Shown one piece after another: positions 5,741 through 25,203 of a stretch of DNA of 64,000 nucleotides (position 1 is the first letter of the stretch; each line of letters begins with the position of its first letter). The position numbers and the translations under genes are program-made. This stretch comes from Phascolarctobacterium succinatutens CAG:287 (lineage in GTDB: Bacteria > Bacillota > Negativicutes > Acidaminococcales > Acidaminococcaceae), in NCBI RefSeq assembly GCF_000434895.1, contig NZ_FR892810.1:1144-65143 (forward strand), written 5' to 3'. Below the pieces are notes generated by a model. The model was not told the DNA's origin. It was given only the letters and a program-made list of their open reading frames with translations, and did no database searches.

Positions 5741-6694
5741 CTACACTATATCTCTAAAATATTGGATTGTTTTTTCCAATCCTACTTCCAAATCAACTTT
5801 TGGTTTCCATTTTAAAACATTCATAGCTAAAGAAATATCTGGACAACGTCTTTTAGGATCATCTTTTGGCAAAGCCTTATAAGAAAAATCAGAACTATTT
5901 TCACAATACAATCTGATTAAACTAGCAACATCAAAAATTGTTCTTTCATCAGGATTCCCTAAATTAACAGGTCCTTGAAATGAATCTTCCGTTGACATCA
6001 TTTTTAATAAACCATCCACCAAGTCATCAATATAGCAAAAACTTCTAGTTTGTTCTCCTCTTCCATATATAGTTAAGTTCTCTCCCCTTAACGCCTGAAC
6101 TATAAAATTAGAAATAACTCTACCATCATCAGCAGACATAAATGGGCCATACGTATTAAATATTCTTACAACCTTTACCAAAGAACCATATTTCCTCGCA
6201 TAATCAAAAATCAAGGACTCAGCACATCTTTTCCCTTCATCGTAACATGATCTGATACCTGTACAATTAACGTTTCCCAAGTAATTCTCTTTTTGTGGAA
6301 AAATTAACGGATCTCCGTAAACTTCGCTTGTACTAGCCTGTAAAAACTTTGCATGATTTTTTCGTGCCAAATTCAATAAATTCAATACACATATCGTGTT
6401 TACTTTAGTAGTATATATTGGATCTTCTTGATATTTCAATGGAGCTGCTGGACACGCAAGGTTATAAATCTCATCGATTTTATATGAAGAATCCAAAACA
6501 TCTAATATATCCAATATATCTCCATTTACTATATTAAATCTCTCAGTTTCTAACAATACTCTTACATTATTTATATTTCCAGTCGTAAGATTATCAAAAC
6601 ATATTACGTGGTTCTGTAAATTATCTAGCAGTCGACGGCATAAATTGGAACCAATAAATCCAGCTCCTCCCGTAACCAAAATAGTACTCATCAT
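5741..6694 (-). CDS. NAD-dependent epimerase/dehydratase, UDP-glucuronate decarboxylase (UXS)-like
   Basis: N-terminal GGAGFIGSNL Rossmann motif, catalytic YxxxK-like region (YDEGKR), and UXS-like blocks RIFNTYGP and LTIYGRGEQTRSFCYIDDLV. AT-rich gene. Confidence 0.8.
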   Translation of the reverse strand: MMSTILVTGGAGFIGSNLCRRLLDNLQNHVICFDNLTTGNINNVRVLLETERFNIVNGDILDILDVLDSSYKIDEIYNLACPAAPLKYQEDPIYTTKVNTICVLNLLNLARKNHAKFLQASTSEVYGDPLIFPQKENYLGNVNCTGIRSCYDEGKRCAESLIFDYARKYGSLVKVVRIFNTYGPFMSADDGRVISNFIVQALRGENLTIYGRGEQTRSFCYIDDLVDGLLKMMSTEDSFQGPVNLGNPDERTIFDVASLIRLYCENSSDFSYKALPKDDPKRRCPDISLAMNVLKWKPKVDLEVGLEKTIQYFRDIV

Positions 6695-6746
6695 TTCCTC
6701 CTAAAAACCAAACGCAGCAAATCGTCGTTGATAGTAATCATAAAAA

Positions 6747-7946
6747 TCAAAGCACTATACGATTAAAACGAGCTTCATTCGAAAGGCTAGTACGTAAAGC
6801 TTTACTACAATAAAACGGATCCAGGTTATATTCTTTCAAAATTTTATCTAATGAATAAAAATAATTAATAACAGTTTCAAATGACGGGACATCACAATCC
6901 AAACGATTTCCTTTATCAAGGTGTAACACATTTGCACTAGAAACAATACCTTGAGAAGCAAGGTATTGATTAAATTTAAGCAAATTTCCAATAGGTTCTA
7001 AACCTAAAACAAAATTAGTCCAAGAATTACCATAGCCAAATACATCAACACCTTTTTTTAAAGCATCTAAGATATGATTAAATCCGATGTTCTTTTTTCC
7101 TGGACAATATTTTGCAAAATCATCTTCATTCCCAAGCTCAAAATTAAATACTATTTTTTCAATTCCGGCTTCCTTAAAGTCTTCTAGTATGTCTAAATCA
7201 TTGGGCGGCATACAAACTGCTATAATACCTTCAGTAGACTTTTTCTCTACTAATGGCTTTATTGCCCTAACAATATCACAATAAATGTGAGCTTGCATAT
7301 CTAACACTTGATCAGATAAGTCTCCAGAAATCAGAATCACATGCATATGTTCATCATAACATTTTGACTTAATAGCCGCTTTGACTGATTTCGTGAGATA
7401 ATTTAGATATGTATCCTTATTTTCATTCCAAAAATCGGGAGAAGAAACCTGATATGCCGTAAAAATACTTGCTTTGTTTTCACCAGCAACAGTGTTTGCA
7501 CCACAGAAAAGACAACCTGCAGAAATATTGCATCCTTTCCAAGGAATTATGTTCAATTCATCCAAACCACAAGCAGATACAAAATCCTTTGCAACTAAAT
7601 CTTCTTCTAATTTATAAGAATAGTAGTCAGGTTCTTCAATAAAAGAGATTGAAATATCTTCAACTTTTCTATTATCAACAGTCGCAAATAATTCCCCATT
7701 TTTGCAATCAACCACTACTGGTTTTAACTTTCCAGGAGCCACACAAGAAGATACTGTTTCAAATCCATCCGAATGACGTATCAATAATTCTTGAGGACGG
7801 AAGTTATCTGCTCCTACCGGAGCATTGTATACCAAATTCTGAATCTTGGCATTTGTCTTACGTGCATATAAAAGAGCTTCATCAGTAAATTGTACCCCAT
7901 GCGTTAATATCATAGCTTTTAAAAAAGTTTCAGGCATTATCATCAT
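6747..7946 (-). CDS. hypothetical protein, possible radical-SAM-like enzyme with noncanonical CX5CX2C motif
   Basis: The only Cys triad is CNISAGCLFCGAN. Downstream segments (HVILISGD, NFVLGLEP) sit where the GGE-like and GxIxGxxE-like radical SAM TIM-barrel motifs would be. No canonical CX3CX2C. Confidence 0.35.
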   Translation of the reverse strand: MMIMPETFLKAMILTHGVQFTDEALLYARKTNAKIQNLVYNAPVGADNFRPQELLIRHSDGFETVSSCVAPGKLKPVVVDCKNGELFATVDNRKVEDISISFIEEPDYYSYKLEEDLVAKDFVSACGLDELNIIPWKGCNISAGCLFCGANTVAGENKASIFTAYQVSSPDFWNENKDTYLNYLTKSVKAAIKSKCYDEHMHVILISGDLSDQVLDMQAHIYCDIVRAIKPLVEKKSTEGIIAVCMPPNDLDILEDFKEAGIEKIVFNFELGNEDDFAKYCPGKKNIGFNHILDALKKGVDVFGYGNSWTNFVLGLEPIGNLLKFNQYLASQGIVSSANVLHLDKGNRLDCDVPSFETVINYFYSLDKILKEYNLDPFYCSKALRTSLSNEARFNRIVL

Positions 7947-8874
7947 TCTTATCTCCTCTTAGTATATTAAAAATCCAAACGATATGAAATATTGGAAAAA
8001 ACAACTGATAAATTACACCATAAAATAGTAGTTTATAATCTTTTCTAGTCATAAGTAAAGCGATTGCTAAAATATAAATCATTCCAGCGTACAAATTACA
8101 ATAACTAATGTATCCAATCATAAGCCAATTGACTATCCAACTAAAATGGTAAAATGCTGCATGCAATAATAATTTGCTTTGATATTCTTTTCGTTTCGGA
8201 TATGAGAATATTTGATAGAAACCTTTCGCCCAACGCTTACGTTGTCTACATAATCCCCCAAAATTTGTATTAGGTTTTTCGTAACCAAGAAGAAAAGACG
8301 ATCGTAATATACTATAGTCTTTCCTATTATTACTTATATAAGCGCCAATAGCAAGATCATCTAAAAAAGTATCAATTTGATATAATTTATCTTGAAAAGC
8401 TTTTGGTCTAATAAAAAAGCATTGTCCTGGTATACTAATTCCCATATTTAATTTCCACGATAAAGGTCTTATCAAATCATGAGATAAGTGTTTATCCGTC
8501 GCCACTAGATTTGATATAAAGCCAGACTGTGATTGGGCATAAATTCGTCCCCATCCAATATCATATTTCCCTGATAATCCTTTTTCTAAAAACTTGAGTA
8601 TTGTCTCGTCATTTACATTTATATCGTTATCAATACTCAAATATAAACAATCCTCTTGTTCTCTTTCAAATAAATACAGTAGCCTAATATACTTTGTTCC
8701 CGGAAAATTTATACTATCGATTTTTATGCCATCAAATTCAAATTTTCTATCATTATCAGTAAATATGATACAAGAGATTTTTGTATTAAGCTTTAACGAA
8801 AGCGTAAGTATCTTTTTTATATTATCATTAAAAGCCTCATTGCTTCGCATATATGTTATAATTTTCAAGTTCAT
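7930..8874 (-). CDS. membrane glycosyltransferase family 2
   Basis: DXD-like motifs (SIDNDINVND), Q-R-K-R-W motif (CRQRKRWAKG) typical of processive/inverting GT2 enzymes, and C-terminal transmembrane helices. 4-nt-scale overlaps with both neighbours. Confidence 0.7.
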   Translation of the reverse strand: MNLKIITYMRSNEAFNDNIKKILTLSLKLNTKISCIIFTDNDRKFEFDGIKIDSINFPGTKYIRLLYLFEREQEDCLYLSIDNDINVNDETILKFLEKGLSGKYDIGWGRIYAQSQSGFISNLVATDKHLSHDLIRPLSWKLNMGISIPGQCFFIRPKAFQDKLYQIDTFLDDLAIGAYISNNRKDYSILRSSFLLGYEKPNTNFGGLCRQRKRWAKGFYQIFSYPKRKEYQSKLLLHAAFYHFSWIVNWLMIGYISYCNLYAGMIYILAIALLMTRKDYKLLFYGVIYQLFFPIFHIVWIFNILRGDKNDDNA

Positions 8875-10484
8875 ATTATATCTACCTTTTCTCCATTCAT
8901 ATAAACATATTCAAGCTTCATTCTTTTGGCAGAAAGCAAAGCGTCTGATTGACTTTCTACAATAGGTTCTCCTTTGCCATTAAAAGAAGTGTTAATCAAT
9001 ACTAATTCCCCATATTTTTTCTCAAGATAATCTAAAATTTTCCAAATCAGCTTTTTATTTTGATTCTCGTATATAACTTGAATTCTAACAGTATTATCTT
9101 TATGAACCAAAGCTGGCATATAATCTATCATTTCAGGTTTAATATTTATTGCCGATAGCATAAGCGGACTAGCTATTCTATCATCAGTAATCTTTTTCAG
9201 ATTACGCTCTAATATTACACCTCCAAAAGGTCTAAAGTTTTCCCGATGCTTTATCTGTAAATTGAGCCGATCCTTCATGTTCTTACTTTTTGCAGAAGCA
9301 ATAATGCTTCGATTGCAAAGAGCTCGCGGACCATATTCCGAGCCACCTTCAAATAGTCCTATAATCTTATCATCATGTATATCTTTTATTACCTGAAATA
9401 ATACAGATTCATCATAACATATTTCACCATAACTTTTTCCTAATGCATAGTCCCACTCAATTTTACTCTTATCTTTAAATATTTTTCTAATTGCCCAAAG
9501 TCCTGCTCCTATAGAAATTCCGTCATCTCCACTTGCTGGAAAAAGACCCAATGAATTAATCAATCCACTATTTATTAATTTTCCATTGTTAAGGCAATTT
9601 AATGCAACCCCACCAGAAAAACAAAAATCTAGGACATTATATTTTTCAGAAAAATATTTAATACGGGTTTGAATGTAGCTTTCTAATTCGAATTGAAGAG
9701 CACATGCAATATTTTTTGCTGTTTGCAACTCATATGATAGTGGATAATCTTGTGAATTTAAATAATCTAACCATTCTTTACGAACATGTAATTTTTTATC
9801 AAAATACAGACATTCTGGTACATCAGCATTCCCCACACCATATGCTGCCAATGCCATAACTTTGCCAGCTGCATTATAATCCTTAAAAATCAGTCGGCTA
9901 ACATCGGCATAGGCATATCCTATGGAGTCCATATGTGATCCCCATTTGTATTTATGCTTAGATGCACTTTCATGAACAGCATATTTCTTTTCAGCTTGTA
10001 ATTCAGTTATTTCGCCATTATCCAGTAGATATAGAGATTCTGCTTCAAATAAATCTTCTTCTGATAAGCTCGAACATCCATTATCAACTGGTCTGCACCC
10101 ACGCCCATCCATTATATAAATTAATGTCTTGTCAAATTTAGCTGCTAAAGATGCTGCATATGCATGAAATAAATGATGCTCATATCTCACAATTACTTTT
10201 GAAAACTTCTTATAATAATCATCATTAATTTCAGTTGAATCATACCAATTTACACGAACAACTAACGAAATTTGATTATACGTAATACCAGCAGCTTTAA
10301 GTAAATATTCTATGCATTCAATAGGTTCTCCAGAATCATGTTTTTTTCTAGTTAATCGCTCTCTGGCAATTGCATAGAGTAATTGATTATTTTTATATAA
10401 ACATGCTGAAGAATCATGTCCACTATGAACGCCAAGTATATAACGATCCACTTGATTCCCCCCTTTACAAACGTGCTTTTTCAA
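8871..10484 (-). CDS. carbamoyltransferase (NodU/CmcH/TobZ family)
   Basis: N-terminal ASKHA/Kae1-like block ILGVHSGHDSSACLYKNNQLLYAIARERLTRKKHD and C-terminal YrdC-like carbamoyltransferase region. About 537 aa, the typical length. Confidence 0.8.
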   Translation of the reverse strand: MKKHVCKGGNQVDRYILGVHSGHDSSACLYKNNQLLYAIARERLTRKKHDSGEPIECIEYLLKAAGITYNQISLVVRVNWYDSTEINDDYYKKFSKVIVRYEHHLFHAYAASLAAKFDKTLIYIMDGRGCRPVDNGCSSLSEEDLFEAESLYLLDNGEITELQAEKKYAVHESASKHKYKWGSHMDSIGYAYADVSRLIFKDYNAAGKVMALAAYGVGNADVPECLYFDKKLHVRKEWLDYLNSQDYPLSYELQTAKNIACALQFELESYIQTRIKYFSEKYNVLDFCFSGGVALNCLNNGKLINSGLINSLGLFPASGDDGISIGAGLWAIRKIFKDKSKIEWDYALGKSYGEICYDESVLFQVIKDIHDDKIIGLFEGGSEYGPRALCNRSIIASAKSKNMKDRLNLQIKHRENFRPFGGVILERNLKKITDDRIASPLMLSAINIKPEMIDYMPALVHKDNTVRIQVIYENQNKKLIWKILDYLEKKYGELVLINTSFNGKGEPIVESQSDALLSAKRMKLEYVYMNGEKVDII

Positions 10485-11127
10485 TTGCCATACTATGTCT
10501 ACGTTTTTCTATGCAATTCGGACAATGGAAAGAATGAATTATCCCATTATACCCACAGCCTTTTTCTTCGCTAAGATTTATTTCTTTAGTTTTTTCCGGA
10601 TGCTTATCTCTGTATCTATTTTTTATTTCAACACTACATTTTATACAAGGAACATCATTTTTTTCTTTTACATATACTGCAATTCCTGTTTTATCCCATA
10701 TATTGAGTTCATCACAAGTACTACAATACGCTAAAAACCAAGGAAATCCCCCATATAAATGTGATATTAATTTTTTTGAAAAAACATACTGAAATTCTTG
10801 TATTTCAAAATCACCTTTTTCTTGAAGAGCTTCATATACCTCATTATCAAATGATTCGCCTGGCCGAAATAAAAGATAGGTATCAGATTCATCGATGTTC
10901 AAATCGCAGCTTTTATATTCATTATACCCCAAAATATCATATACTAATGCCGGAACCCATGGATATAAAATATGAGTATTATCTCTATCAATTGCTTTTA
11001 GGTCCTCATAAGTTTTAATCTTTGAAGTACACTTAATCAATTCATCTTTATCAATTTCTATTCCCTGCATTTTCATAGCTAATTTAAATGATTTTATGCA
11101 AACACTATCCATCTCAAACCTCATCAT
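10465..11127 (-). CDS. hypothetical protein with C-terminal zinc-ribbon-like Cys pairs
   Basis: CxxC...CxxC...HCPNC arrangement in the last 70 residues. No recognisable catalytic motif. Translationally coupled to neighbours by overlaps. Confidence 0.5.
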   Translation of the reverse strand: MMRFEMDSVCIKSFKLAMKMQGIEIDKDELIKCTSKIKTYEDLKAIDRDNTHILYPWVPALVYDILGYNEYKSCDLNIDESDTYLLFRPGESFDNEVYEALQEKGDFEIQEFQYVFSKKLISHLYGGFPWFLAYCSTCDELNIWDKTGIAVYVKEKNDVPCIKCSVEIKNRYRDKHPEKTKEINLSEEKGCGYNGIIHSFHCPNCIEKRRHSMAIEKARL

Positions 11128-12283
11128 GCTTAATATATTGGCTACCGATTAGTAGTCTATCTTTTATTTTCTTATAATACGCTTCTGAGAAATTATCTCC
11201 TAAACATATAGCTAATCGATTATTGGCACTAGGATCTAATCTATCAATTCTATCTCCTAATTTTTTTAATTTTATAGCCTGTAAATCGTTAATAAGAAAA
11301 TTATCATTTATTAGCGTTCCCATAGTATTAGGGATAAAATTCAACTGAAAAACATTTTGGAAATTTCCTTTATTAGCTATGCATTTTTCTCCAAACAACA
11401 CTTCTAAGGAATCCCTATATAAATTACCACCATGGTATCTCAGTAATTCTGAAATTCCTCCACCCACTCGGCATGAGAAATCAATCGGAACTAGCACATT
11501 GCTGACACTAGTAGGTGAAATAAAATCGAATTGTCCGAATGAAATATTATCATAATCAAACAACGCATTGCACCATAATTCTAAATATCTTCTTATAAGC
11601 TCTGTTGGTTCTTCTAATACATATGCTAATACACACGGAGCATTATCAATAATTGTTCTGTATTTTTTGCATACCCTAACAACAGAAATTTTACCCTGAA
11701 AGAAAAAAACATCCGCACTATATTCTACGCCATCAATAAATTCAAAACATATTGATGGTGAAGCTGTAATATCTAATACTTTTTTTACCTTTTCGTCGAC
11801 AATAGACGCATCAATTAAATACTTATCTATATTGTGATAATTTAACGCAGAAATAATTTTGACGCCGTGTCCTGAATATTGATTATCTGGTTTTATAATA
11901 TATACTTTTTGTTTATCTGACACTATTTTTTTTACATTGCTCGTTATTTCATATCTATTCGATGGCAATCCGTGTTGCATCATGCAATCCGCTAAATATT
12001 TTTTAGACCGACTAGCCTTAAATGCTTTAGTAGAAATTCTACACCTTTTTACATTCTTTTTACACCATGTTACCCAATATTCATTTAATGGCACTACTAT
12101 TGAATCTTCATCTTTAATATCATTTTTAACACTTACTTCTTTCAAATCATCTGAACTAATATATTTTGCCATTTCAGGTGTTTCAACAAATTGCAATGCG
12201 AAATCCGAATTTTTAGAAGCAGCTTTTATATCTGCCAATCCATATATGCTTGCAGCACCTGCAAATATTATTATTGTTTTCAT
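11114..12283 (-). CDS. ATP-grasp domain protein (putative ligase)
   Basis: Central block KQKVYIIKPDNQYSGHGVKII typical of the ATP-grasp fold (D-Ala-D-Ala ligase/RimK/graspetide-ligase families), about 390 aa. First gene after a 540-bp gap containing a terminator. Confidence 0.55.
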   Translation of the reverse strand: MKTIIIFAGAASIYGLADIKAASKNSDFALQFVETPEMAKYISSDDLKEVSVKNDIKDEDSIVVPLNEYWVTWCKKNVKRCRISTKAFKASRSKKYLADCMMQHGLPSNRYEITSNVKKIVSDKQKVYIIKPDNQYSGHGVKIISALNYHNIDKYLIDASIVDEKVKKVLDITASPSICFEFIDGVEYSADVFFFQGKISVVRVCKKYRTIIDNAPCVLAYVLEEPTELIRRYLELWCNALFDYDNISFGQFDFISPTSVSNVLVPIDFSCRVGGGISELLRYHGGNLYRDSLEVLFGEKCIANKGNFQNVFQLNFIPNTMGTLINDNFLINDLQAIKLKKLGDRIDRLDPSANNRLAICLGDNFSEAYYKKIKDRLLIGSQYIKHDEV

Positions 12284-12821: not shown

Positions 12822-13019
12822 TTATTGATTGAATCTTATTGAATTATTGTTTACAGACAGTAAAGCTTTACTGTGAATATCTCTAAGCATTAAACCAGAA
12901 GCAGTGCCCACAGAAAATGCTGATGCTGCACTAAGTCCGGCAACAGCGCCTACGACAGCGGGAATAGCACCCTCACTAGGATATAAATTATTAATTAATG
13001 GTTTACTATATTTTTTCAT
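12822..13019 (-). CDS. small Gly/Ala-rich peptide (candidate RiPP/bacteriocin precursor 1)
   Basis: 65 aa: MKKYSKPLINNLYPSEGAIPAVVGAVAGLSAASAFSVGTASGLMLRDIHSKALLSVNNNSIRFNQ. Its ATG overlaps the PqqD-like stop (ATGA). Paralogous to the peptide at 13310..13474, with a shared MKK[YS][SY]xKP N-terminus and an A[IF]P..VGAxxAG core. Confidence 0.5.
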   Translation of the reverse strand: MKKYSKPLINNLYPSEGAIPAVVGAVAGLSAASAFSVGTASGLMLRDIHSKALLSVNNNSIRFNQ

Positions 13020-13306
13020 TTTTTATCCTCCAATCTGATAATATTTTTCCATTGTAAATCCCTAATCAGATTTACTATGTCTTGTTCTAAACTATTTTCG
13101 TCAATTACGTAATCCTTAAGAAACATTTCTTTTATTTCTTCGATTTTTCTTTTTCCATCGCATAATTCCAGAAAATTTTTAGCCGTTTCATTTAAATAAA
13201 AAATATCTAAACCGTCTGATTCTGCTATTAAAAAATCTTCATTTTCCCTAGTCTTTAAGGCTATAACTCTAGGAATCTTATCTTTAAAAAAATCGTACAC
13301 CACCAC
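13016..13306 (-). CDS. PqqD-family protein (RiPP recognition element, peptide chaperone)
   Basis: LNETAKNFLELCDGKRKIEEIKEMFLKDY matches the PqqD/RRE signature (LNxTaxxIWeLcDGkrTveEI). About 95 aa. Probable GTG start, 3 nt after the peptide-2 stop. Confidence 0.7.
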   Translation of the reverse strand: MVVYDFFKDKIPRVIALKTRENEDFLIAESDGLDIFYLNETAKNFLELCDGKRKIEEIKEMFLKDYVIDENSLEQDIVNLIRDLQWKNIIRLEDKK

Positions 13307-13309
13307 AAT

Positions 13310-13474
13310 TCACCTACCTAAATTTTTCAGTTTTATTACAGGGCTCGCTTTCATAGCATGAGCTACTGCTCTTCCAATTACGTAACCACCAGCTAAAGCT
13401 GCACCTACCATCGGAAACGCACTTTTCCCCATATCAAAGCACATAGCCACTGGTTTTATATAACTTTTCTTCAT
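13310..13474 (-). CDS. small Gly/Ala-rich peptide (candidate precursor 2), absent from the ORF track
   Basis: Manual translation from the ATG at 13474 (RBS TAAGGAG 6 nt upstream) gives 54 aa: MKKSYIKPVAMCFDMGKSAFPMVGAALAGGYVIGRAVAHAMKASPVIKLKNLGR, stop at 13310-13312. Paralogous to peptide 1. Confidence 0.5.
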   Translation of the reverse strand: MKKSYIKPVAMCFDMGKSAFPMVGAALAGGYVIGRAVAHAMKASPVIKLKNLGR

Positions 13475-13560
13475 AGCAAACAACTCCTTATAATATCTTT
13501 TATTTTTACCGATTTTCTCGGTCTTTTGTAGTTTTTTATATTTTAAGTCAGCTTTTTGTT

Positions 13561-14601
13561 TTAGACTAAAATATCTTTATCAACATGATTTTGAATATTG
13601 CCCTTTTGAGTCTCCTCGTTTATTGAGGCAATAAATTTTTGAACTCTTTCACTCTTCCATGCATTAATTCCGTGCTTCATCCATAACTCTTTTAGTGAAG
13701 TATTTAACACATTGCCAATAATGAACGGAGCCATGCAATCTAATCGGAATTCCCCATTAGGTCTAATGATACCGCCAGCATTATTCTCTAAGCTATACCT
13801 TTTCATTTGATGCCCCAAATCAGCACTTCTTCTAATTTCTATTTTCTCGTTATACTTATTTTGAAGCTTACTAATAACTTCATACAAGCAATTTTTTTGT
13901 TCTTTCGTTAAAATAATATCTTCATTAGTAATAGCTCTTCCACTAGGCAAAACCTCACCTAAAATAATTCTGCTTGCCCCCATGCTATAAGCTAAATCTA
14001 CCATATCCTCAACTTTTCCTAGATTTTTAGGAGTTACCGTATGAGCAATTACAAGAGGTATACCAGCTTGAGAAATTTCCAAAGCACCATTTACCGCTCG
14101 TTCAAAGCTGCCTCTCACCCCCCTGAACTCGTCATGAATTTCTGCTGTTGAACCGTCAATAGATACTTGAAACCAATAATATCTATACTTACTAAAGCGT
14201 TTTACTTTTTCTTTAGTCAGCAGGTAACCGTTTGTAATAACTACAAAAGAAGTCCCATCATCATGCAAAATATCCATTATGTCAAATAGGCGATCACCTA
14301 ATAATAATGGCTCTCCGCCAGAAAGAATACATTGAAAAATACCGCCATCTTTAACTATCTCTTTAGCCAAACTGCACCATTTATCTGGTGTCATTAACGT
14401 CTCCCTATCAGCATCACCAGATCTATTATAACAATGCTTGCACGCAAGATTGCATCGTCCTGTTAATTCAAATTGTAACGTAATCGGATATGTAAATTTT
14501 TCAGGATATAAGCCTTGTTTTCTTAAATTAGTAATATTTTCTTCAATAGCCTTTAGATATTGATTATCTAACGCTCTGTTTATTTTTATATAATCTTTCA
14601 T
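13561..14601 (-). CDS. radical SAM enzyme (peptide-maturase-like, PqqE/anSME-type N-terminal domain; incomplete SPASM cysteine set)
   Basis: Canonical CNLACKHCY (CX3CX2C) at residues about 50-58, SAM-binding ILSGGEPLL, and the glycine-rich barrel motifs. The C-terminal region has only two Cys (RLDCMAPF), so no full SPASM. Start overlaps the upstream gene (ATGA). Confidence 0.85.
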   Translation of the reverse strand: MKDYIKINRALDNQYLKAIEENITNLRKQGLYPEKFTYPITLQFELTGRCNLACKHCYNRSGDADRETLMTPDKWCSLAKEIVKDGGIFQCILSGGEPLLLGDRLFDIMDILHDDGTSFVVITNGYLLTKEKVKRFSKYRYYWFQVSIDGSTAEIHDEFRGVRGSFERAVNGALEISQAGIPLVIAHTVTPKNLGKVEDMVDLAYSMGASRIILGEVLPSGRAITNEDIILTKEQKNCLYEVISKLQNKYNEKIEIRRSADLGHQMKRYSLENNAGGIIRPNGEFRLDCMAPFIIGNVLNTSLKELWMKHGINAWKSERVQKFIASINEETQKGNIQNHVDKDILV

Positions 14602-14870
14602 TCTTTTTCTCCTTTTATTATTTTACAAAAAAAGTAAATAATACGATGAAATTCACGAACACTCATATACGGAAAATACTTTTCGTAAACATACTTACCA
14701 TTGCAAGCATTCGGCCGGATAGAATAAATTGAACATCTGTTATCCACATTCAAGAATTTGCAAATACCATCGCCTCTATCAAATCCTAATAATTGCAGTA
14801 TTCTATTCACATGTTTACAACATTCCCCACAGCAATCGCATGGAAACGGATAATACTTTTGCACAATCAT
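14598..14870 (-). CDS. YkgJ-family cysteine-cluster protein (putative Zn/Fe-chelating domain, PF03692-like)
   Basis: FPCDCCGECC = CxCCxxCC motif, plus further Cys (C..C, CNGK), characteristic of the YkgJ / flagellin N-methylase-like cysteine cluster. 90 aa. Confidence 0.55.
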   Translation of the reverse strand: MIVQKYYPFPCDCCGECCKHVNRILQLLGFDRGDGICKFLNVDNRCSIYSIRPNACNGKYVYEKYFPYMSVREFHRIIYFFCKIIKGEKE

Positions 14871-15342: not shown

Positions 15343-15585
15343 TTACTTTCTCTCCTGCATAAGCCGCACCGGGTCAACCCCCAAAGCCTGCGCCAGCAAA
15401 AATATAGACTCCATATTAAAGGGTCCCTTGCCGCATTCGATGTCTGAAACGCGCGCTCTTGACATTTTGGCCTTCTCCGCCAGCTCGCTCTGCGTCAGGC
15501 TCAATGCCCTACGATAATACATTATATTCAAGCCAATAGTTTTATATTTTTCTTCAAACAAAAAGTACCACTCCTTATCTCTCAC
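15343..15585 (-). CDS. XRE-family helix-turn-helix transcriptional regulator (type b, copy 1)
   Basis: LSLTQSELAEKAKMSRARVSDIECGKGPFNMESIFLLAQALGVDP. About 96% identical to the protein at 21719..21937. Confidence 0.8.
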   Translation of the reverse strand: MRDKEWYFLFEEKYKTIGLNIMYYRRALSLTQSELAEKAKMSRARVSDIECGKGPFNMESIFLLAQALGVDPVRLMQERK

Positions 15586-15758
15586 CTTATATTATGCACT
15601 AAAAAGGTAGCTCGTGCGGTGCTTTAAATTTTATATATGTGGAATATATTTGACATGAATGCTGTAAACTTCCTTACTTACCGCCTGCTTTTAGTATAAA
15701 TTGAAATGAGAAACAATAATACCACTATAAAATTTCTTCTTTGTGATATTTGAATAAG

Positions 15759-15811
15759 AAAAAAGCTCCCGGATTTCTCCGAGAGCCGATTGCCATAGTT
15801 GGCGGAGTGGG
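15759..15811. repeat. direct repeat: copy of the tRNA-Ser(GCU) 3' end plus terminator hairpin (att-like, distal copy)
   Basis: aaaaaagctcccggatttctccgagagccgattgccatagttggcggagtggg matches 26704..26756 at 49 of 53 positions. All four mismatches fall in the hairpin arms as two compensatory pairs, preserving the stem. Confidence 0.7.
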
Positions 15812-15864
15812 TTAAGGTCTTCTAACCCAACAACAAAGTAATGCTTACTTAATCCTATCAATTT

Positions 15865-16926
15865 TTATTTCAGCAGTGCTACTTTGGAATCTCCAACGCC
15901 GCTATTCAGCTGTGCTGTTTTTGAATTTGCAACGGCCTTACTCAGCAGGGCAACCTTTTTATCTATTTCCTTTTGGACACGCTCTTTGTAATCCTTTAAG
16001 GCCGCATCAATGGTATCGATAACCTGGGAATCGTAATCCACATAATTAATGGCGTCCTTCAAATCTCCTATATATTCTTCGCAAGCCTTATTTACATCTT
16101 TATAGCAATATTTCTCTTCATATTTATCATTACCGAAGAAGCTAGTGCCTGCATATACTTCTGTATCATCTGTATCCATATAATCCCTATAATCACTACG
16201 GGAAGTATAATTGCAGCCATTAAACTCTCTCATTACATCACTGCAGCCGCGCTCTTCAAACTCTTTAAGCCTTACATTGAGCATATACACAAGCACAGAA
16301 TCCTTCTCATTAGCACTGCCGCCCGGGAAAACCGCAAATTCTTTAAAGTCTGCCGGCAGCTTAATTCCGCCTGCAGCTGCCGCTCCGGCAAATTCCTGCA
16401 GCACATCTGCATACTGCTTGTTAATCTGCCCCCAGAAGCCGCTTTCATCAAAAGTATAAAATCTTCTCAGCTTGTCTTCCTTATATTGCACAAAAACCTC
16501 AAGAATGAATTTCTTATACTGCGAATAGCAGATACGATCAAATTCACTTTCCGCAGCACTCATAGCTCTGCTTTCGCTGGAATAATCATAACGATATTCT
16601 CCCTGCGGATAGGAGCAGGTCATACGGTAATCCTGTGCGTGCATCTCAACATCTTTTCGGGTAACATTCGGAACGGTAATCTTTGCTAAAGCGTTTTGCA
16701 GTTTTTCCGGCAGCTTGCTTAAGTCTGCGCCTTCGCCTTCCGCTATGCTTAAAGCTTGTACAGGGCAACCGGCAACAATTTCTTCAGCCTTGGCTAAAAA
16801 ATCATCACTAAAATAGCCACCATTTACAGGAACAGCCTTGCCTTCAGCATCTTCCTGCAAAAGTTTTGTTTCTAATAAGCAGTTGCCACAAGCAATGCAT
16901 TTTTCACTAACTACAAATTTTTTCAT
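15865..16926 (-). CDS. hypothetical protein with N-terminal single-cluster 4Fe-4S ferredoxin-like domain
   Basis: N-terminus CIACGNCLLET...AGCPVQAL resembles single [4Fe-4S] ferredoxin domains. The remaining roughly 290 aa have no recognisable motif. First gene downstream in a three-gene operon. Confidence 0.5.
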   Translation of the reverse strand: MKKFVVSEKCIACGNCLLETKLLQEDAEGKAVPVNGGYFSDDFLAKAEEIVAGCPVQALSIAEGEGADLSKLPEKLQNALAKITVPNVTRKDVEMHAQDYRMTCSYPQGEYRYDYSSESRAMSAAESEFDRICYSQYKKFILEVFVQYKEDKLRRFYTFDESGFWGQINKQYADVLQEFAGAAAAGGIKLPADFKEFAVFPGGSANEKDSVLVYMLNVRLKEFEERGCSDVMREFNGCNYTSRSDYRDYMDTDDTEVYAGTSFFGNDKYEEKYCYKDVNKACEEYIGDLKDAINYVDYDSQVIDTIDAALKDYKERVQKEIDKKVALLSKAVANSKTAQLNSGVGDSKVALLK

Positions 16927-16942
16927 CTTGATTCCTCCAAAT

Positions 16943-17770
16943 CTACAAATTTTTTATATCCTGCATACACTGACTGCCAATTGCCAACGCTTCCGTTGTT
17001 TCTTGCGTAACCTTTCCTTCGTCCGTAAGTACAGGAGCATCAATTATTTTTTTCAGTGTAACCGCCAGATTTATGCAGCTGCAAAAGGCCTTGCGATCGT
17101 TTTCTGTATAAGCAGCTTTGTCCCTGCCCTTAGCAGCAATCAGTTCATCTGAATAGCTGATAGCTTGCATAAACAGCCTGTTTAACCTTGGCAGTAAATC
17201 AGACACCTTATTGCAGGAAGCTATCACGCCGTCTAAAACAGCAGCTAAATTTTCAGCCTGGCTGTAGACAACACGTGAACTGCGCAGCTGCGCGCCAGCC
17301 ATTTGCAGTTCCCTTTCAGAATCATTGATAAACGCATTGCCTAAGCCAAATACGCCGAAGCCCTTTAAGATGCTGACAGCAATTTCTTTATCAGTCATTG
17401 GTCTTACAGCTGTCTGTGCCACTGCATTGATAATCTGTATCTCTTTAGGGCTAAAGCTTTGCTGGTTTAAAACTGCCAGCATCTTGTCATCACGAAAGTC
17501 AATTTTCATGAGCTTGCCATACACAGTAACAAAATTCTGCATTGAAGTAATCAATATCGAACGCTTACGGTTGGAAAGCTTCTTCATAGCATTATCTGCT
17601 GCCTGCTTCTTTACTTCCACCAGCCTGTGAGCTTCTTGCTCCATCGCAAAAGCTTTAGCATAACGCTTTCTCGTCCTGCTATCTATCTGCATTGATTTTT
17701 CTGCGCCATAAAGGCCGCTGCCCAAAACTGCCCCAAGTACCAGTCCGATCATATCATCTGCCCCCTTCAT
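16943..17770 (-). CDS. hypothetical protein (N-terminal glycine-zipper hydrophobic segment)
   Basis: MIGLVLGAVLGSGLYGAE hydrophobic GxxxG segment followed by a predicted helical region. Start overlaps the upstream gene's stop (17767/17770). Confidence 0.5.
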   Translation of the reverse strand: MKGADDMIGLVLGAVLGSGLYGAEKSMQIDSRTRKRYAKAFAMEQEAHRLVEVKKQAADNAMKKLSNRKRSILITSMQNFVTVYGKLMKIDFRDDKMLAVLNQQSFSPKEIQIINAVAQTAVRPMTDKEIAVSILKGFGVFGLGNAFINDSERELQMAGAQLRSSRVVYSQAENLAAVLDGVIASCNKVSDLLPRLNRLFMQAISYSDELIAAKGRDKAAYTENDRKAFCSCINLAVTLKKIIDAPVLTDEGKVTQETTEALAIGSQCMQDIKNL

Positions 17771-19122
17771 AATGTCAGCACCGCATCTTTATCGTCAAAA
17801 AAACTGTTAAACTCCTCCAGTGACTGAAAAGCACATTTTTGGTTAAACACCGCCAAAATATCATTCAGGCCCTGGGTGATTGCTTTATCATCTACTGCGT
17901 AAACTCCCTGCATAACAAGCTCAAAGCCACCTTCAAAGGCCGCTGTCATATATGCATCTTTTGCTTTATTGTATTCATCAATCCGCTGCTTTTGCTGCGC
18001 CAGACTTTGCAGTGCAGTATTAATAATATGCTTAAATTCCGCCTGACGTTTTTTATCCAGCCTGCGTTCCATCTGATATTTAGTGACCGCCCTGGTTATT
18101 TCCCCCACAACCAGGGAAGTAACCACTGCCGCCACCGGTCCGCCCAAGGCAAACGCCATGTTTGCTGCCAATACACCGGCAGTGCCGCAAACAATTTGCG
18201 CAGAGCATTCTTCGCCGCTGATATTGCCATCTAAATAGTTCGCCACAATGCCACCTATTTCTACAGCCATCGTCAGCTGCATAATCGGCAAATTTTTTCC
18301 TGCTAGCTTGGCGAAATCCTTCGCCCCAGCCTTTTTCGCTACTGCGACAACACCATCCTGTACTACCGAAATACCGGCAGCACTGCCAAAGCTCCTTACA
18401 GTATCCTTGCCGACATTTTTTACAGCCTGCTTAATGTCCTGTTCACCTTTCACCAAGCCCACAAGATTGGTCAAGCCGGAAACAGTTGCAGTTACAAAGG
18501 CTGCTTCCCTGCCGGCAGCAGTTGCCTTCTTGACCGATGGCGCAACTGCACCCAGCTTAGAACTGATAACTTTGCTGTTTTTTATTTCATTAACCGTATT
18601 TTCTATTTTATACTTAGTCGCCTGTGTCCGTATATGAGCCTCTGCCTTCACTTCTTCTTTCAGCATATTAACGCTCGTCACAGCATCCGGGCAGTCAACA
18701 GCTTTTTTATTTGTCTTGAAGATTTTCTTGCCAAATAAAGTCTCTGATACATCATTAATCTGCGCAGCGCCTGCTTCAGTATATTTTTTTGCTATATACT
18801 CGTGGTTATTCAGCGCACCCTTGGACTTGTTCAGCGAGGCATTGGTATTAGCAAGGTTTGCATCAGCATTAGCCATTGTTCTTATCTGCTCCGGCGTCAA
18901 ATCAGAACCATAACGCCTGATTTGCTCATCTAACGGAACAATGTGGTCAACGTTTGATTGCTTTTCATTAATATGCTTATTAGCATTATAAAAAATTCTC
19001 TTACCCGTATATTCGTCAGTTATACTTTTTTTATTGCCAAAGGATCTGTTTTTATAGCTGTCAGCCGCATTATTGCGTCTGTTAATATCATCTACCTGAC
19101 TACGCTTTATCTTATCACTCAT
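17767..19122 (-). CDS. HNH (beta-beta-alpha-Me) nuclease-motif protein with Gly/Ala-rich hydrophobic central region
   Basis: N-terminal SNVDHIVPLDEQIRRYGSDL...NASLNKSKGALNNHEY resembles the Cys-free HNH motif (compare Cas9 HNH DVDHIVPQS...DNKVLTRSDKNRGKSD). Central region GIVANYLDG...GTAGVLAANMAFALGGPVAAVVTSLVVG is glycine-zipper-like. Confidence 0.5.
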   Translation of the reverse strand: MSDKIKRSQVDDINRRNNAADSYKNRSFGNKKSITDEYTGKRIFYNANKHINEKQSNVDHIVPLDEQIRRYGSDLTPEQIRTMANADANLANTNASLNKSKGALNNHEYIAKKYTEAGAAQINDVSETLFGKKIFKTNKKAVDCPDAVTSVNMLKEEVKAEAHIRTQATKYKIENTVNEIKNSKVISSKLGAVAPSVKKATAAGREAAFVTATVSGLTNLVGLVKGEQDIKQAVKNVGKDTVRSFGSAAGISVVQDGVVAVAKKAGAKDFAKLAGKNLPIMQLTMAVEIGGIVANYLDGNISGEECSAQIVCGTAGVLAANMAFALGGPVAAVVTSLVVGEITRAVTKYQMERRLDKKRQAEFKHIINTALQSLAQQKQRIDEYNKAKDAYMTAAFEGGFELVMQGVYAVDDKAITQGLNDILAVFNQKCAFQSLEEFNSFFDDKDAVLTL

Positions 19123-19159
19123 ACGCCGCCTCCAAAATTTATTGAGAAGTATCTTCTAC

Positions 19160-19390
19160 TCCTTCCATTAGCTCACTCATCGTAATCCCTAGCTTCCTGG
19201 CAACCTATTCCTGTATCAAACTCTTCAATTGCCTGCAAGTAAGGCATCTTAGTGCCTATTTTCTTATATCTCTGTGCAAATAATTAGCATTAGCTCCCTT
19301 TCCCACTATATTATCGCACATTATCAATTTCATATCTTTGCACAATTTTTCACAATTTTACATATAGTTTAATTTCTTGCGCTTTACCTA
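19160..19390 (-). pseudogene. remnant of type-a XRE regulator gene plus its conserved downstream noncoding segment
   Basis: 19160-19270 aligns to the 5' and 3' parts of the 14955..15185 gene with about 80 nt missing internally. 19290-19390 (ctatattatcgcacattatcaatttcatatctttgcacaatttttcacaattttacatatagtttaattt) matches 15205-15290. Confidence 0.5.
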
Positions 19391-19573
19391 TTAAGCTTTG
19401 CAAGGTGCTTACGTAATTTATATTTCCGCCATGATTTTGATAATAAGTTATGGTGCATTTTTTTCAAACTCACGTCAAATCACCCATTTGCCATATGAGC
19501 ATGAATATATTTAAAGTTCAACATATTAAATAAATTTTTAGCAGGACTGCAAAACGCAGCCCTGCCTGTTACC

Positions 19574-20992
19574 TTATAGCTGTAAATAATCAATCAATAC
19601 CAAACCGGCGTTATACCCGGCCAGCGAAGCAGTTGTCCTATCCATAGGATGCCACGAACCATCATCAGCCTGATATTGAACAAGATATCCTTTACCAGTA
19701 AGCAGACCTACAATACATTGCTGTCGACTTTGCTGCCCAGTGCTACCTATTACAATCATGTCATATTGCACAATTGTTTGACCATTATTGCGCGACAAAA
19801 TTTTTGCACTGCGACAATCAACATAACGATGTGCTCCTTGTCGTTGGAATACTTCCGGTATATATTTATCGCCATTCAAAAACGCTTGCGGATGAAATAA
19901 ATTATACTTCGGTCCACTGCTATTCACATTACTATTCACATTGCTATTTGCATTGCTATTGCTGTATGTAGTTGCTTTACTATTGTTCTCTTCCTGCTGC
20001 ATGTTTAAAATGCCTTCCACATTATATTTATAGGCACCTGTATTGATGAGCAGCTTGCCTTTACCATTATCTAATTCCAACTGAGTCCAGTGTAAATTAA
20101 AGTCCTTGTATTTACTTTCTAAGAAATATTGGCACTCTACTGTCAAAACTTGCTTAGAATTCAATTTGAAGCCTTTTAAATCATTACGATCGCCAAAAGT
20201 AATAACATTAAATTTTTTAGGCGTTAGCAAGTCATTGCCAATTCTCAGGTTAACAGAAAGCTTATCAAGGTCTATTGTTTCATTTTTGCTCATATTAGTA
20301 AAAGCTATCGTTACACTATAAACCCAATCATCAATCTTGCGTCGTTCAAGCACGGCAAAGCCTAGCTTGGTATCGCCAATTTCTTGAACTCGATACGAAG
20401 CGCCACTGCAATCTAAATAAGCGGCTCCCTTATGAAATTCGCCATCATTAGCCATGCCATACCAGTTTAAATCGTGCTGCAAAACAGCATTTTGGAATTC
20501 TACCTTTTCAAAGGCTTCCATTTCCATTGGTCCATTATTGCCAGAATATTGTTCCATATTAGAGCAGACTCTTTTAAGATAAACATTATAAGCCTGCAGA
20601 TAATCCTTCACGCTTTTAGCGTAATTAGCTATTTGGTAGCGTTTGATGGCTTTCTCCCCATCCTTTTTAGAAGGACCATTATCCTTGCTGTCCATCATTT
20701 TCTTGCTGAAATCCATAAAGCTCTCATTGGCCTTCGCTTCATCATATTTTTCATCACTCAGCTTGGCGATATTCTTGTCATTTTCTTCAATTAAATTCTT
20801 AATCTGCTTGAGCATTTTCTGCTTATCAATATTGCGATTTTCCAGCATGGCCTGAGCCTGCTCTGTTTCCATCTCAGCAACCTTCGTACTGTTGTTAAGA
20901 TACATGGAATGTATTTTTTGCTCTTCTGACTTACCACAACCGGTAAGCACCACTGTTAAGATAAGCATTGCATAAAAAAACAGCTTTTTCAC
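19574..20992 (-). CDS. hypothetical lipoprotein with N-terminal coiled-coil region and N/S-rich repeat
   Basis: Signal peptide with lipobox (VLTGCGK). KATTYSNSNANSNVNSNVNSSGPKY is encoded by a 12-nt tandem repeat at about 19916-19965. Confidence 0.6.
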   Translation of the reverse strand: MKKLFFYAMLILTVVLTGCGKSEEQKIHSMYLNNSTKVAEMETEQAQAMLENRNIDKQKMLKQIKNLIEENDKNIAKLSDEKYDEAKANESFMDFSKKMMDSKDNGPSKKDGEKAIKRYQIANYAKSVKDYLQAYNVYLKRVCSNMEQYSGNNGPMEMEAFEKVEFQNAVLQHDLNWYGMANDGEFHKGAAYLDCSGASYRVQEIGDTKLGFAVLERRKIDDWVYSVTIAFTNMSKNETIDLDKLSVNLRIGNDLLTPKKFNVITFGDRNDLKGFKLNSKQVLTVECQYFLESKYKDFNLHWTQLELDNGKGKLLINTGAYKYNVEGILNMQQEENNSKATTYSNSNANSNVNSNVNSSGPKYNLFHPQAFLNGDKYIPEVFQRQGAHRYVDCRSAKILSRNNGQTIVQYDMIVIGSTGQQSRQQCIVGLLTGKGYLVQYQADDGSWHPMDRTTASLAGYNAGLVLIDYLQL

Positions 20993-21044
20993 ACTATGAC
21001 CTCCCTATATAACTTTTCCAGTTAAATGTTTTATAAAAAAAGTA

Positions 21045-21677
21045 CTATTGCAAAGGATCTGCTCCGTAGCGATTATCACCTACCGTACCAGGCGCAAACA
21101 GTAAATACAACTCAAAAAAGCCATTGAGAAGTGGCACAAAGGTTAATAATACTAATAAGCCATCTTTATCCAAATCGTGCAAGCGACGAACCGATATAGC
21201 ACTATTTATCCAAACCAATAGAGTAAAAGCTATTAAGCCAATGAAGCAAGCCAGATAATCAATTGCTTCCATATAGTAATCATCTACAAACTCGTCGATG
21301 ATGCAGGCGATAATAAAAAACACCAAACAACTACTCATGCTCTTGAGGAAATAATCCAATCTATTGATGCGTCCCTCAAAGCTCAAAAACTGCTCTTTAA
21401 AAATCTCTTTATTCAAAGCAGGTTTACGTTCGGGATTATTGCCAAAAAGTCTGCTAAAGATTTCTTTAAAATCCTTGGGATTATCATTGCTATGAGCTTT
21501 TCCCAACTGAAAACCACATTTTGTGCAAAATTTGACACCAATAGGATAAGTTGTACCGCACTTAGGGCAAATTACATTTGTCGGCTCAATCTTTGGTAAC
21601 TGATCTGTCCCGCATACCGGACAAAACCTTCCCTGGTCGTCAATTTCGGCTCCACACTTAATACAATACTTTGACAT
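21045..21677 (-). CDS. DUF805-family inner-membrane protein with N-terminal zinc-ribbon repeats
   Basis: Three CxxC...CxxC zinc-ribbon units (CIKCGAE..CPVCG; CPKCGT..CTKCG) followed by the DUF805 signature (GRINRLDYF ... RRLHDLDKDG ... GDNRYGADP). Confidence 0.7.
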   Translation of the reverse strand: MSKYCIKCGAEIDDQGRFCPVCGTDQLPKIEPTNVICPKCGTTYPIGVKFCTKCGFQLGKAHSNDNPKDFKEIFSRLFGNNPERKPALNKEIFKEQFLSFEGRINRLDYFLKSMSSCLVFFIIACIIDEFVDDYYMEAIDYLACFIGLIAFTLLVWINSAISVRRLHDLDKDGLLVLLTFVPLLNGFFELYLLFAPGTVGDNRYGADPLQ

Positions 21678-21718
21678 AATATCTGCCTCCCTCTAATATT
21701 TTTTATTGCCGCTGCTTC

Positions 21719-21937
21719 TTACTTTCTCTCCTGCAGAAGCCGCACCGGGTCAACCCCCAGGGCCTGCGCCAGCAAAAATATAGACTCCATATTAAACGGT
21801 CCCTTACCGCATTCTATATCCGAGACGCGCGCCCTTGACATTTGGGCTTTCTCCGCCAGCTCGCTCTGCGTCAGACTCAATGACCTGCGATAATACATAA
21901 TATTTAAGCCAATAGTTTTATATTTTTCTTCAAACAA
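21719..21937 (-). CDS. XRE-family helix-turn-helix transcriptional regulator (type b, copy 2)
   Basis: 72 aa, about 96% identical to 15343..15585. The roughly 190 bp on its high-coordinate side are also conserved with 15586-15758. Confidence 0.8.
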   Translation of the reverse strand: MFEEKYKTIGLNIMYYRRSLSLTQSELAEKAQMSRARVSDIECGKGPFNMESIFLLAQALGVDPVRLLQERK

Positions 21938-25117: not shown

Positions 25118-25203
25118 TTCCTATCGTTTCAGAGAGTGCGCCCGAAGCACACGCTATCGGTTTTACATTTCTGCGTTTAGCTTCTCTTTTCTCAATCTTA
25201 CCC

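Follow-up and report, generated by a model that had tools for sequence, protein, structure and literature searches.

What does a short run of minus-strand genes around a radical S-adenosylmethionine (radical SAM) enzyme of Phascolarctobacterium succinatutens CAG:287 produce? The genes lie in a 64,000-nucleotide stretch of contig NZ_FR892810.1 (assembly GCF_000434895.1, positions 1,144 to 65,143), here called the window, whose numbering is used for all positions in it. A first-pass annotation, made from the sequence alone, had described five open reading frames (ORFs) for a YkgJ-like protein, a radical SAM enzyme, two small peptides and a PqqD-like protein as a module that matches no class of peptides that are made on the ribosome and modified after translation (RiPPs). 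We consider it likely, with a probability of about three in four, that the cassette is a RiPP module of an undescribed family, in which a radical SAM enzyme dependent on a discrete RiPP recognition element (RRE) acts on the adjacent peptides. The lack of a class match was confirmed: the peptides match no Pfam or NCBIfam model, all of their database homologs are unnamed or "hypothetical", and a literature search on YkgJ together with radical SAM and PqqD, on RiPPs of Negativicutes and on cluster-less radical SAM enzymes of RiPP pathways found nothing on the present family.

The gene models were checked against a six-frame ORF list and the minus-strand sequence, and families were assigned by scans with Pfam and NCBIfam (Table 1). 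All five ORFs are present where they had been placed, and a sixth gene, for an XRE-family helix-turn-helix (HTH) regulator, is also part of the cassette, which it heads in many loci. The resulting order, XRE regulator, YkgJ-type protein, radical SAM enzyme, 54-aa peptide (peptide A), PqqD-type RRE and 65-aa peptide (peptide B), is tightly coupled within about 2.3 kb. The junctions are as first described, with ATGA overlaps between the YkgJ stop and the radical SAM start and between the PqqD stop and the start of peptide B, one 3-nt spacer and one 86-nt gap. Peptide A starts with ATG at 13474, 9 nt downstream of AAGGAG, while the true start of the YkgJ gene is probably the GTG at 14864, since the spacing of the ribosome-binding site fits there and the homologs begin with MQKYYPF. 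A hairpin terminator that had been proposed to follow peptide B could not be recovered, as the minus strand has no terminator-like site there and shuffled sequence folds at least as well as the downstream region (z = +1.5). Inside the gap between the radical SAM and peptide A genes lies a GC-containing hairpin of 5 bp (13508-13522), which reads ACCGAGAAAATCGGT on the coding strand; it is not a terminator because A residues and no U-run follow it on the coding strand (it is listed for the opposite strand only), and it may be a processing or stability element. At 86 nt the gap is unusually long in the window, compared with only about 15-40 nt in most other loci.

The arrangement of the genes is far beyond chance; dozens of independent loci have them in the same order. 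Database relatives of the radical SAM enzyme number more than 1,600, the best 120 of which are all about 346 aa long and 67-77% identical, with Megasphaera stantonii and Selenomonas sp. KH1T6 among the named sources; the closest relative of the window cassette, at 95% identity, comes from a Phascolarctobacterium metagenome-assembled genome. The neighborhoods of four relatives repeat the order HTH, YkgJ, radical SAM, peptide, PqqD, peptide. A scan of a genome collection with a single protein gave only three loci, so a metagenome scan with an alignment was needed, which added 77 further loci with enzyme identities down to 38%. All loci were searched with profiles of each component and collapsed at 90% enzyme identity to 48 radical SAM lineages, of which 28 had enough flanking DNA for adjacency counts. 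PqqD is located downstream of the enzyme in all 28, a peptide gene stands between the two in 24 and a peptide gene follows PqqD in 21, while YkgJ is immediately upstream of the enzyme in 20. The peptide genes are thus kept beside the radical SAM and PqqD homologs, a point on which the first-pass annotation had made its reading depend. Hosts of this gene order include Megasphaera stantonii, Selenomonadaceae, Phascolarctobacterium, Synergistaceae, Epulopiscium (from which peptide homologs are also recorded) and many metagenome contigs, and a search seeded with the peptides found the cassette in a Synergistaceae genome and, in another organism, as an insertion that separates ATP synthase genes from nrf genes. 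One complete module with a 69% identical enzyme is situated on a 2.5-kb contig (L009, DEKL01000039.1) binned as "Alphaproteobacteria bacterium UBA2723"; this label is probably a binning error, because all other named hosts are Negativicutes, Synergistaceae or clostridia.

The connection between enzyme and peptides would be provided by the PqqD-type protein. It scores above the cut-off of PF05402 and its neighboring peptides carry the cognate leader motif. The NCBIfam models for PqqD (TIGR03859, 34 against a cut-off of 46), GeoRSP-PqqD, WgkC and lasso PqqD give weak matches, all under cut-off. Among 109 non-identical peptides of 40-105 aa collected from the loci, 104 have [YW]xxPx[LVIFA] near the N-terminus, compared with 4.4% of background ORFs. 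This is the motif recognized by the discrete RREs of lasso peptides and LPP (PMC13381572), and in lasso leaders it occupies positions -17 to -12 (PMC10368454). When the lasso-leader register is applied, the leader here would be about 20 residues long and end in [IV]-Pro. By analogy we infer that the YxxP leader is bound by PqqD, which hands the peptide over to the radical SAM enzyme. The likeness to lasso and LPP systems extends to the leader motif, the discrete PqqD-like RRE and a Tyr placed 16-17 residues before the putative leader end, but the modifying enzyme here is a radical SAM protein, the cassette contains neither a lasso cyclase nor a B2 protease, kinase or signal-peptidase-like gene, and protease or cyclase families do not recur in the flanks.

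It is very improbable that the small ORFs arose by chance, or that they code for unmodified class II microcin-like peptides beside an unrelated radical SAM operon. The Gly/Ala-rich class II microcins of diderm bacteria are indeed similar in composition. However, position and architecture are conserved across the 48 lineages and several phyla, the RRE-binding motif occurs at 24 times the background rate, the ORFs have good ribosome-binding sites and are translationally coupled to PqqD, a double-glycine leader is absent and a peptidase-containing ABC exporter does not recur in the flanks; the chance version is refuted. Codon differences between the window and a 95%-identical locus (L008) were counted as well. 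Most changes in the enzyme and the regulator are synonymous (17 nonsynonymous and 38 synonymous in the radical SAM gene, 1 and 18 in the HTH gene), whereas peptide A has 9 nonsynonymous and 7 synonymous changes and peptide B has 11 and 3, clustered in the hydrophobic core. Judged from their sequences, the peptide ORFs are real genes whose cores change fast, which is what one would expect of RiPP precursors.

In an alignment of 35 diverse members of this collection only four columns are invariant or nearly so, namely Tyr4, Pro7, Pro20 and one Gly. Two longer patterns that the window peptides had been said to share hold only approximately. The parts that are truly common are Y-x-K-P-x-[ILV], one Gly and an invariant Pro that follows the Tyr at a distance of about 16 residues. 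The Pro lies exactly 16 residues past the Tyr in 58 of the 109 peptides, usually with Ile or Val before it and Leu or Ala after it; in peptide A the motif reads Y5-x-x-P8-x-A and the conserved Pro is Pro21. The Pro is followed by a hydrophobic, Ala/Gly-rich segment of about 20-25 residues (44-50% Ala plus Gly in residues 21-45, and a median best 19-residue hydropathy of 1.78 in both peptide types) and then by a polar tail, with net positive charge at both ends of the peptide. The 78 peptides of the close family fall into 39 of type A, which is proximal to the radical SAM gene and has the consensus GYAxGRAV...KAxxAxPxxKL, and 39 of type B, which is distal, after PqqD, and has the consensus MKKYxKPxI...GIIPLAA...AG...DIxS...L. 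Tails are conserved within each type. Distant branches also retain two distinct peptide types, both located before PqqD, and some loci have three to six peptides. Extra peptides in Selenomonadaceae-type loci (L010 5302-5529, L021 2885-3034, L026 2902-3069) have the YxxP leader and a C-terminal L-T-x-R-K tail without the Ala/Gly-rich middle. No column of conserved Cys exists in the 35-peptide alignment. Any Cys at all is found in 12 of the 39 type A and 10 of the 39 type B peptides, that is in 22 of the 78, and the single Cys of peptide A is Ser in a 96%-identical locus (L012). In a subgroup formed by Synergistaceae and locus L055 (L091 5001-5864; L055 5114-5917) all three peptides end in a tail of the [LAP]-[ED]-[PC]-C type (LEPCVD, LEPCELCID, PECVIA, LDPCID), a C-terminal Cys which is absent from the rest of the peptide family.

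The enzyme itself is, by its sequence, a member of the radical SAM superfamily, with an invariant C50-x3-C54-x2-C57 cluster motif and an invariant S94-G-G-E97 (CNLACKHC and SGGEP in the window). None of the NCBIfam equivalogs describes it, the scores being 121 for AhbD and 117 for NirJ2 (cut-off 500 for both), 109 for GeoRSP (400), 107 for MftC (TIGR03962, 265), 105 for PqqE (TIGR02109, 381) and 102 for SkfB (300). With matches so far under cut-off it joins no family of cofactor or sulfatase maturases, a grouping that had been named as the one that would speak against a peptide substrate. Its best solved relative by sequence is SkfB (1e-21, or 9e-24 with a profile), and the AlphaFold model (mean predicted local distance difference test score 82) also finds SkfB first by fold (Foldseek 2.8e-14, template modeling score 0.63), followed by SuiB and anSME.

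These scores bear on the possibility that the product is a peptide-derived redox cofactor like pyrroloquinoline quinone (PQQ, made by PqqA/D/E from a pqqA-D-E locus) or mycofactocin (MftA/B/C), which we regard as highly unlikely. The logic is shared, since here too a discrete PqqD-family chaperone and a radical SAM enzyme of SPASM lineage accompany a small peptide, and PqqD and PqqE/MftC give weak matches. Nevertheless, all of these matches are far below equivalog cut-offs, downstream cofactor-processing genes are not present and genes of the PqqB, PqqC, PqqF, MftD, MftE and MftF types do not recur in the flanks. The peptides are multiple (at least two diverging copies), long (50-100 aa), hydrophobic and fast-evolving, without a conserved Glu/Tyr pair or a C-terminal Val-Tyr, and their C-termini are unrelated to those of mycofactocin precursors. 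The patchy distribution and the mobile contexts of the cassette also argue against a cofactor.

The C-terminal domain of the enzyme distinguishes it from its best known relatives. Genuine SPASM proteins align as NCGAG...PNGDVRPC...GNI...W...CX2CX5CX3C, whereas the window family has NAGG-IIRPNGxFRLDC...GNV...W. The earlier remark that the full SPASM cysteine set is missing was correct: NCGAG has become NAGG, the later cysteines are gone (the CX2CX5CX3C block is absent in every family member examined, down to 38% identity) and the hairpin cysteine C289 alone is kept; the match to PF13186 stays under its cut-off. As the hairpin aligns with true SPASM relatives while the cluster cysteines are lost, this domain is SPASM-derived in sequence but without cluster. 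In the core family the invariant cysteines are the three cluster ligands, C91 and C289, with C76 nearly invariant. A full-sensitivity search of 1.84 billion cluster representatives gave 146 proteins at E up to 1e-30, among which 28 full-length representatives carry the hairpin signature; across this wider clade 15 of 29 sequences retain C91 and 2 of 29 retain C76, while the hairpin cysteine is nearly universal. In the alignment C289 is no more than one column away from the hairpin cysteine by which SPASM enzymes bind auxiliary cluster I. On the evidence of these alignments the family is a clade of the SPASM lineage that lost its auxiliary clusters and kept one cysteine.

A thioether product, i.e. 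a sactipeptide or ranthipeptide, is what a pqqD and radical SAM layout first suggests, and the first-pass annotation had drawn this comparison. SkfB, as the closest solved relative, is in accordance with it; the family shares with sactisynthases of the SkfB type a small ribosomal peptide as substrate and a retained PNGxxR..C...GN[IV]...W hairpin. Hydrophobic Ala/Gly-rich peptides also recall subtilosin and thuricin CD. Unlike in SkfB, however, the RRE is a separate protein and not an N-terminal domain, the auxiliary-cluster cysteines, which known sactisynthases need, are lost but for one, and the scattered Cys of the substrates occupies no conserved position. The resemblance is therefore not supported, and on sequence evidence a thioether cluster is untenable.

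The YkgJ-type protein is a companion of the enzyme on its upstream side in most of the lineages counted. PF03692 matches 21 of 28 homologs (best E 1.5e-7), with the window protein just under the cut-off, and eight cysteines (C11, C14, C17, C18, C37, C46, C56 and C82) are invariant or conserved in at least 90% of the sequences. No solved structure resembling it was found by sequence or by a fold search of its model against the PDB. In FliB a cysteine motif related to that of YkgJ holds a [4Fe-4S] cluster which is sensitive to oxygen (PMC8598068), and by analogy the YkgJ-type protein presumably also binds an Fe-S cluster. A "split SPASM", in which YkgJ would be the auxiliary-cluster domain in trans, was considered and rejected: no homology to SPASM C-terminal domains exists (hhalign profile-profile probability 0.3%), and YkgJ is not adjacent to the enzyme in 8 of the 28 lineages; a substitution in function alone is conceivable. 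In five loci (L004-L008) a small HTH_3 gene is found directly upstream of YkgJ. A distant YkgJ-type protein of 83 aa (P0140) belongs to a separate conserved cassette (L088 2679-5329, also L089 and L090) with genes for a WYL regulator, a 132-aa protein, a 439-aa protein, YkgJ and a 357-aa protein and with short ORFs after them, the other genes being without Pfam match; it may be another uncharacterized mobile system around a small YkgJ protein.

From these components a course of events can be proposed. By lasso and LPP precedent, the discrete PqqD-type RRE would bind the leader of each peptide through Y-x-x-P-x-[ILVFA] and would present the peptide to the radical SAM enzyme, where, to judge from family and synteny, SAM would be reductively cleaved and a hydrogen atom taken from the peptide. 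The enzyme might then epimerize Calpha positions and give D-residues, with C289 as the hydrogen-atom donor (compare Cys223 in EpeE and Cys372 in PoyD), and the YkgJ-type Fe-S protein might supply the electron in place of an auxiliary cluster, to return the thiyl radical to the thiol or else to reduce the SAM cluster. Finally the modified peptides, of which there are two and sometimes more, would act together in a membrane. Epimerization is our tentative preference, at odds clearly below even, because the enzyme is SkfB-like, the substrates have no conserved Cys or aromatic residue, the auxiliary cysteines are lost and the lone C289 is kept, in a hairpin which in SPASM/twitch enzymes is turned towards the substrate site. 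Sactisynthases and radical SAM epimerases both abstract the Calpha hydrogen and differ in whether the radical is trapped by a Cys of the substrate or of the enzyme (PMC8326336), and in EpeE the auxiliary cluster was proposed to re-reduce the thiyl radical (PMC13012085). On this proposal the present enzyme would, like those of epipeptides (EpeE/YydG) and proteusins (PoyD/OspD), combine Calpha-hydrogen abstraction with quenching by a single conserved enzyme Cys, and the products would be comparable in character: those of the polytheonamide type are hydrophobic and membrane-active, and epipeptides permeabilize membranes. Differences are that EpeE keeps an auxiliary [4Fe-4S] cluster and has Cys223 on a flexible loop (PMC13012085), while the conserved Cys here lies in the twitch hairpin. 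Proteusins, for their part, have large nitrile-hydratase-like leaders. Unlike the present cassette, the operon for epipeptides encodes a protease and an ABC transporter.

About equally likely is that the enzyme, like most SPASM/twitch maturases of RiPPs, forms an intramolecular C-C, C-O or C-N cross-link or introduces a desaturation; we regard this, too, as a possibility of less than even odds. Its nearest relatives by sequence and fold, SkfB and SuiB, are cross-linking enzymes, and the polar tail (with D-I-[YH]-S-K or IDSxHT motifs) or the Gly-Tyr-x-x-Gly-Arg of peptide A could be the target, the tails being conserved per peptide type and persisting in the extra peptides that have no Ala/Gly-rich middle. 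On the other hand, no aromatic, Cys, Lys or other reactive side chain outside the leader is conserved family-wide, only Pro20 and one Gly are, and known cross-linking maturases of the same clade keep at least one auxiliary cluster, whereas the present family has none.

Several observations weigh against parts of the reading proposed here. For the epimerase step, C289 is a single non-cluster Cys that does not vary in the core family, but the homology with EpeE is weak (about 30 bits, confined to the N-terminal core, and a fold E of about 1e-7 over about 205-220 columns) and the relationship to SkfB would suit a cross-linking enzyme just as well. A few very distant relatives lack C289; its position near the active site is deduced from other SPASM structures, and it may be only a structural relic. 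As nothing in the core is invariant besides one Pro and one Gly, the site of modification cannot be named, and because the extra Selenomonadaceae-type peptides keep leader and tail but not the hydrophobic segment, the tail may be functionally important or even the true site of modification. YkgJ is not strictly required in cis, as follows from the 8 lineages in which it is not adjacent. Furthermore, an all-against-all comparison of flank ORFs within 5 kb across the 48 lineages gave no recurring transporter, protease or immunity gene, the only recurrent extra family being the XRE HTH regulator (10 lineages). The missing leader peptidase, exporter and immunity gene are unusual for a secreted membrane-active bacteriocin.

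Two co-conserved peptides of membrane type with fast-changing cores suggest a two-component membrane-active toxin. Thuricin CD, class IIb two-peptide bacteriocins and Gly/Ala-rich class II microcins are the natural comparison. As in two-peptide bacteriocins, two distinct peptides are conserved together in the cassette, both hydrophobic and Gly/Ala-rich and with a GxxxG-like spacing of small residues, but the leaders are of the YxxP and not the double-glycine type, and a peptidase-containing ABC exporter and an immunity gene are wanting; thuricin CD, unlike the present system, requires Cys and two SPASM enzymes. SCIFF-type pairs of radical SAM enzyme and peptide are a comparable minimal cassette without exporter or protease. 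SCIFF peptides, however, have six conserved cysteines and a full SPASM maturase, while here neither conserved cysteines nor auxiliary clusters are found. The peptides could be directed either at competitors, in the manner of a bacteriocin or microcin, or at the producer's own membrane in addiction, defense or stress.

Room for such an intracellular role is left by the lack of genes for an exporter, a peptidase and immunity, by the control through an XRE regulator and by the surroundings of mobile or defense-island type. The corresponding explanation, a mobile addiction, abortive-infection or stress system whose modified peptides enter the producer's own membrane under control of the XRE regulator at the head of the cassette, is in our opinion unlikely. 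It is in agreement with the compactness of the cassette and its variable, low-GC or mobile surroundings: the Megasphaera cassette is flanked on both sides by insertion-sequence-type transposases, an AIPR gene is found near the cassette in L007, WYL and helicase genes at the Synergistaceae locus, and Schlafen-like and AAA_21 genes in the window. Such neighborhoods are guilt by association only, however. PADLOC gave generic viperin-type radical SAM and HTH matches only, by which a known defense system was rejected; no relatives of the cassette were found on the viral contigs of IMG/VR, a PHROGs scan gave generic radical SAM matches only, and fast, mostly nonsynonymous change in peptide cores is more typical of antagonistic secreted peptides. 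The sole plasmid match is a 34%-identical enzyme within a different cluster, probably also of RiPP type, on Clostridium tagluense plasmid pCM022-58 (L095, NZ_CP086158.1 15256-26140). That enzyme has no hairpin Cys, and the cluster contains two identical 44-aa peptides, a ThiF-family adenylyltransferase, a second radical SAM enzyme, a 125-aa unannotated ORF and two ABC transporter ATP-binding proteins.

In the window the cassette lies in low-GC DNA (0.30-0.34, compared with 0.45-0.54 for core genes), between a polysaccharide cluster on one side and a variable island on the other. Directly downstream (5741-12283, GC 0.30-0.33) are genes for an NAD-dependent epimerase, a 399-aa ORF without Pfam match, a GT2 protein, a carbamoyltransferase, a 220-aa protein of no assigned family and an ATP-grasp protein (11114-12283). 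The last four were considered as tailoring genes and rejected, as they accompany the module in no other lineage and look like part of a polysaccharide cluster. Upstream, the variable lower-GC stretch 15343-26361 looks like a defense or mobile island (Table 1). Elsewhere, an ORF of about 133-139 aa (MFL..L...Q.EAFL...), which by eye we take to be TerB-like, directly follows the module in four radical SAM lineages (e.g. L009 1968-2369, L059 3812-4231), and a gene for a DUF1232 membrane protein adjoins it in L007 and L091.

Table 1. Features of the cassette and of the island upstream of it, with positions in the window.
Feature	Position	Strand	Remarks
XRE-family HTH regulator, 76 aa	14955-15185	minus	PF01381 E = 1.6e-17
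YkgJ / CxxCxxCC-family protein, 90 aa	14598-14870	minus	CDCCGECC; PF03692 21.5 bits, cut-off 23
Radical SAM enzyme, 346 aa	13561-14601	minus	PF04055 E = 9e-26, 91.5 bits, cut-off 29.5; SPASM (PF13186) E = 0.079
Spacer between radical SAM and peptide A genes, 86 nt	13475-13560	minus	5-bp hairpin 13508-13522; AAGGAG ribosome-binding site
Precursor peptide A, 54 aa, MKKSYIKPVAMCFDMGKSAFPMVGAALAGGYVIGRAVAHAMKASPVIKLKNLGR	13310-13474	minus	no Pfam or NCBIfam model reaches cut-off
PqqD-family RRE, 96 aa	13016-13306	minus	PF05402 39.9 bits, cut-off 23.4
Precursor peptide B, 65 aa, MKKYSKPLINNLYPSEGAIPAVVGAVAGLSAASAFSVGTASGLMLRDIHSKALLSVNNNSIRFNQ	12822-13019	minus	no Pfam or NCBIfam family
Second XRE HTH protein	15343-15585		upstream island
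353-aa protein, N-terminal 4Fe-4S ferredoxin domain	15865-16926		upstream island
Four ORFs without significant Pfam match	16943-17770, 17767-19122, 19574-20992, 22209-23375		upstream island
Double-zinc-ribbon and DUF805 protein	21045-21677		upstream island
Schlafen/AlbA_2 and HATPase_c_4 protein	23621-25117		upstream island
AAA_21 ATPase	25204-26361		upstream island

Taken together, the cassette works like an RRE-dependent radical SAM RiPP pathway, yet it falls outside PQQ, mycofactocin, sactipeptides and ranthipeptides, lasso peptides and class II bacteriocins as these are defined. It is new in that no curated model, source annotation or paper describing the family was found. A far-reaching version, which we hold to be quite improbable, is that of a new RiPP class in which a radical SAM enzyme without auxiliary clusters works with a separate YkgJ-type Fe-S protein to modify the backbone, for example by epimerization, of cysteine-free Ala/Gly-rich peptide pairs, the whole being a mobile unit without exporter or immunity gene that acts on the producer's membrane, for instance as an XRE-controlled addiction or anti-phage device. 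Uncharacterized radical SAM RiPP families are numerous, and unprecedented chemistry is not yet evident here. The combination of a SPASM-derived radical SAM enzyme without auxiliary cluster, a dedicated YkgJ-type partner, lasso-type leaders on cysteine-free membrane-like cores and at least two co-conserved precursors is nevertheless unusual. Radical SAM RiPPs have been fertile ground for new peptide chemistry and for narrow-spectrum microbiome antibiotics, and the present family occurs widely among gut and rumen Negativicutes, Synergistaceae and some clostridia. With its small size the cassette is directly testable by heterologous expression. Its characterization would probably define a new RiPP class, could for the first time assign a function to a small stand-alone YkgJ protein, a member of a family of which hardly any biochemistry is known, and could show a radical SAM maturase working without an auxiliary cluster.

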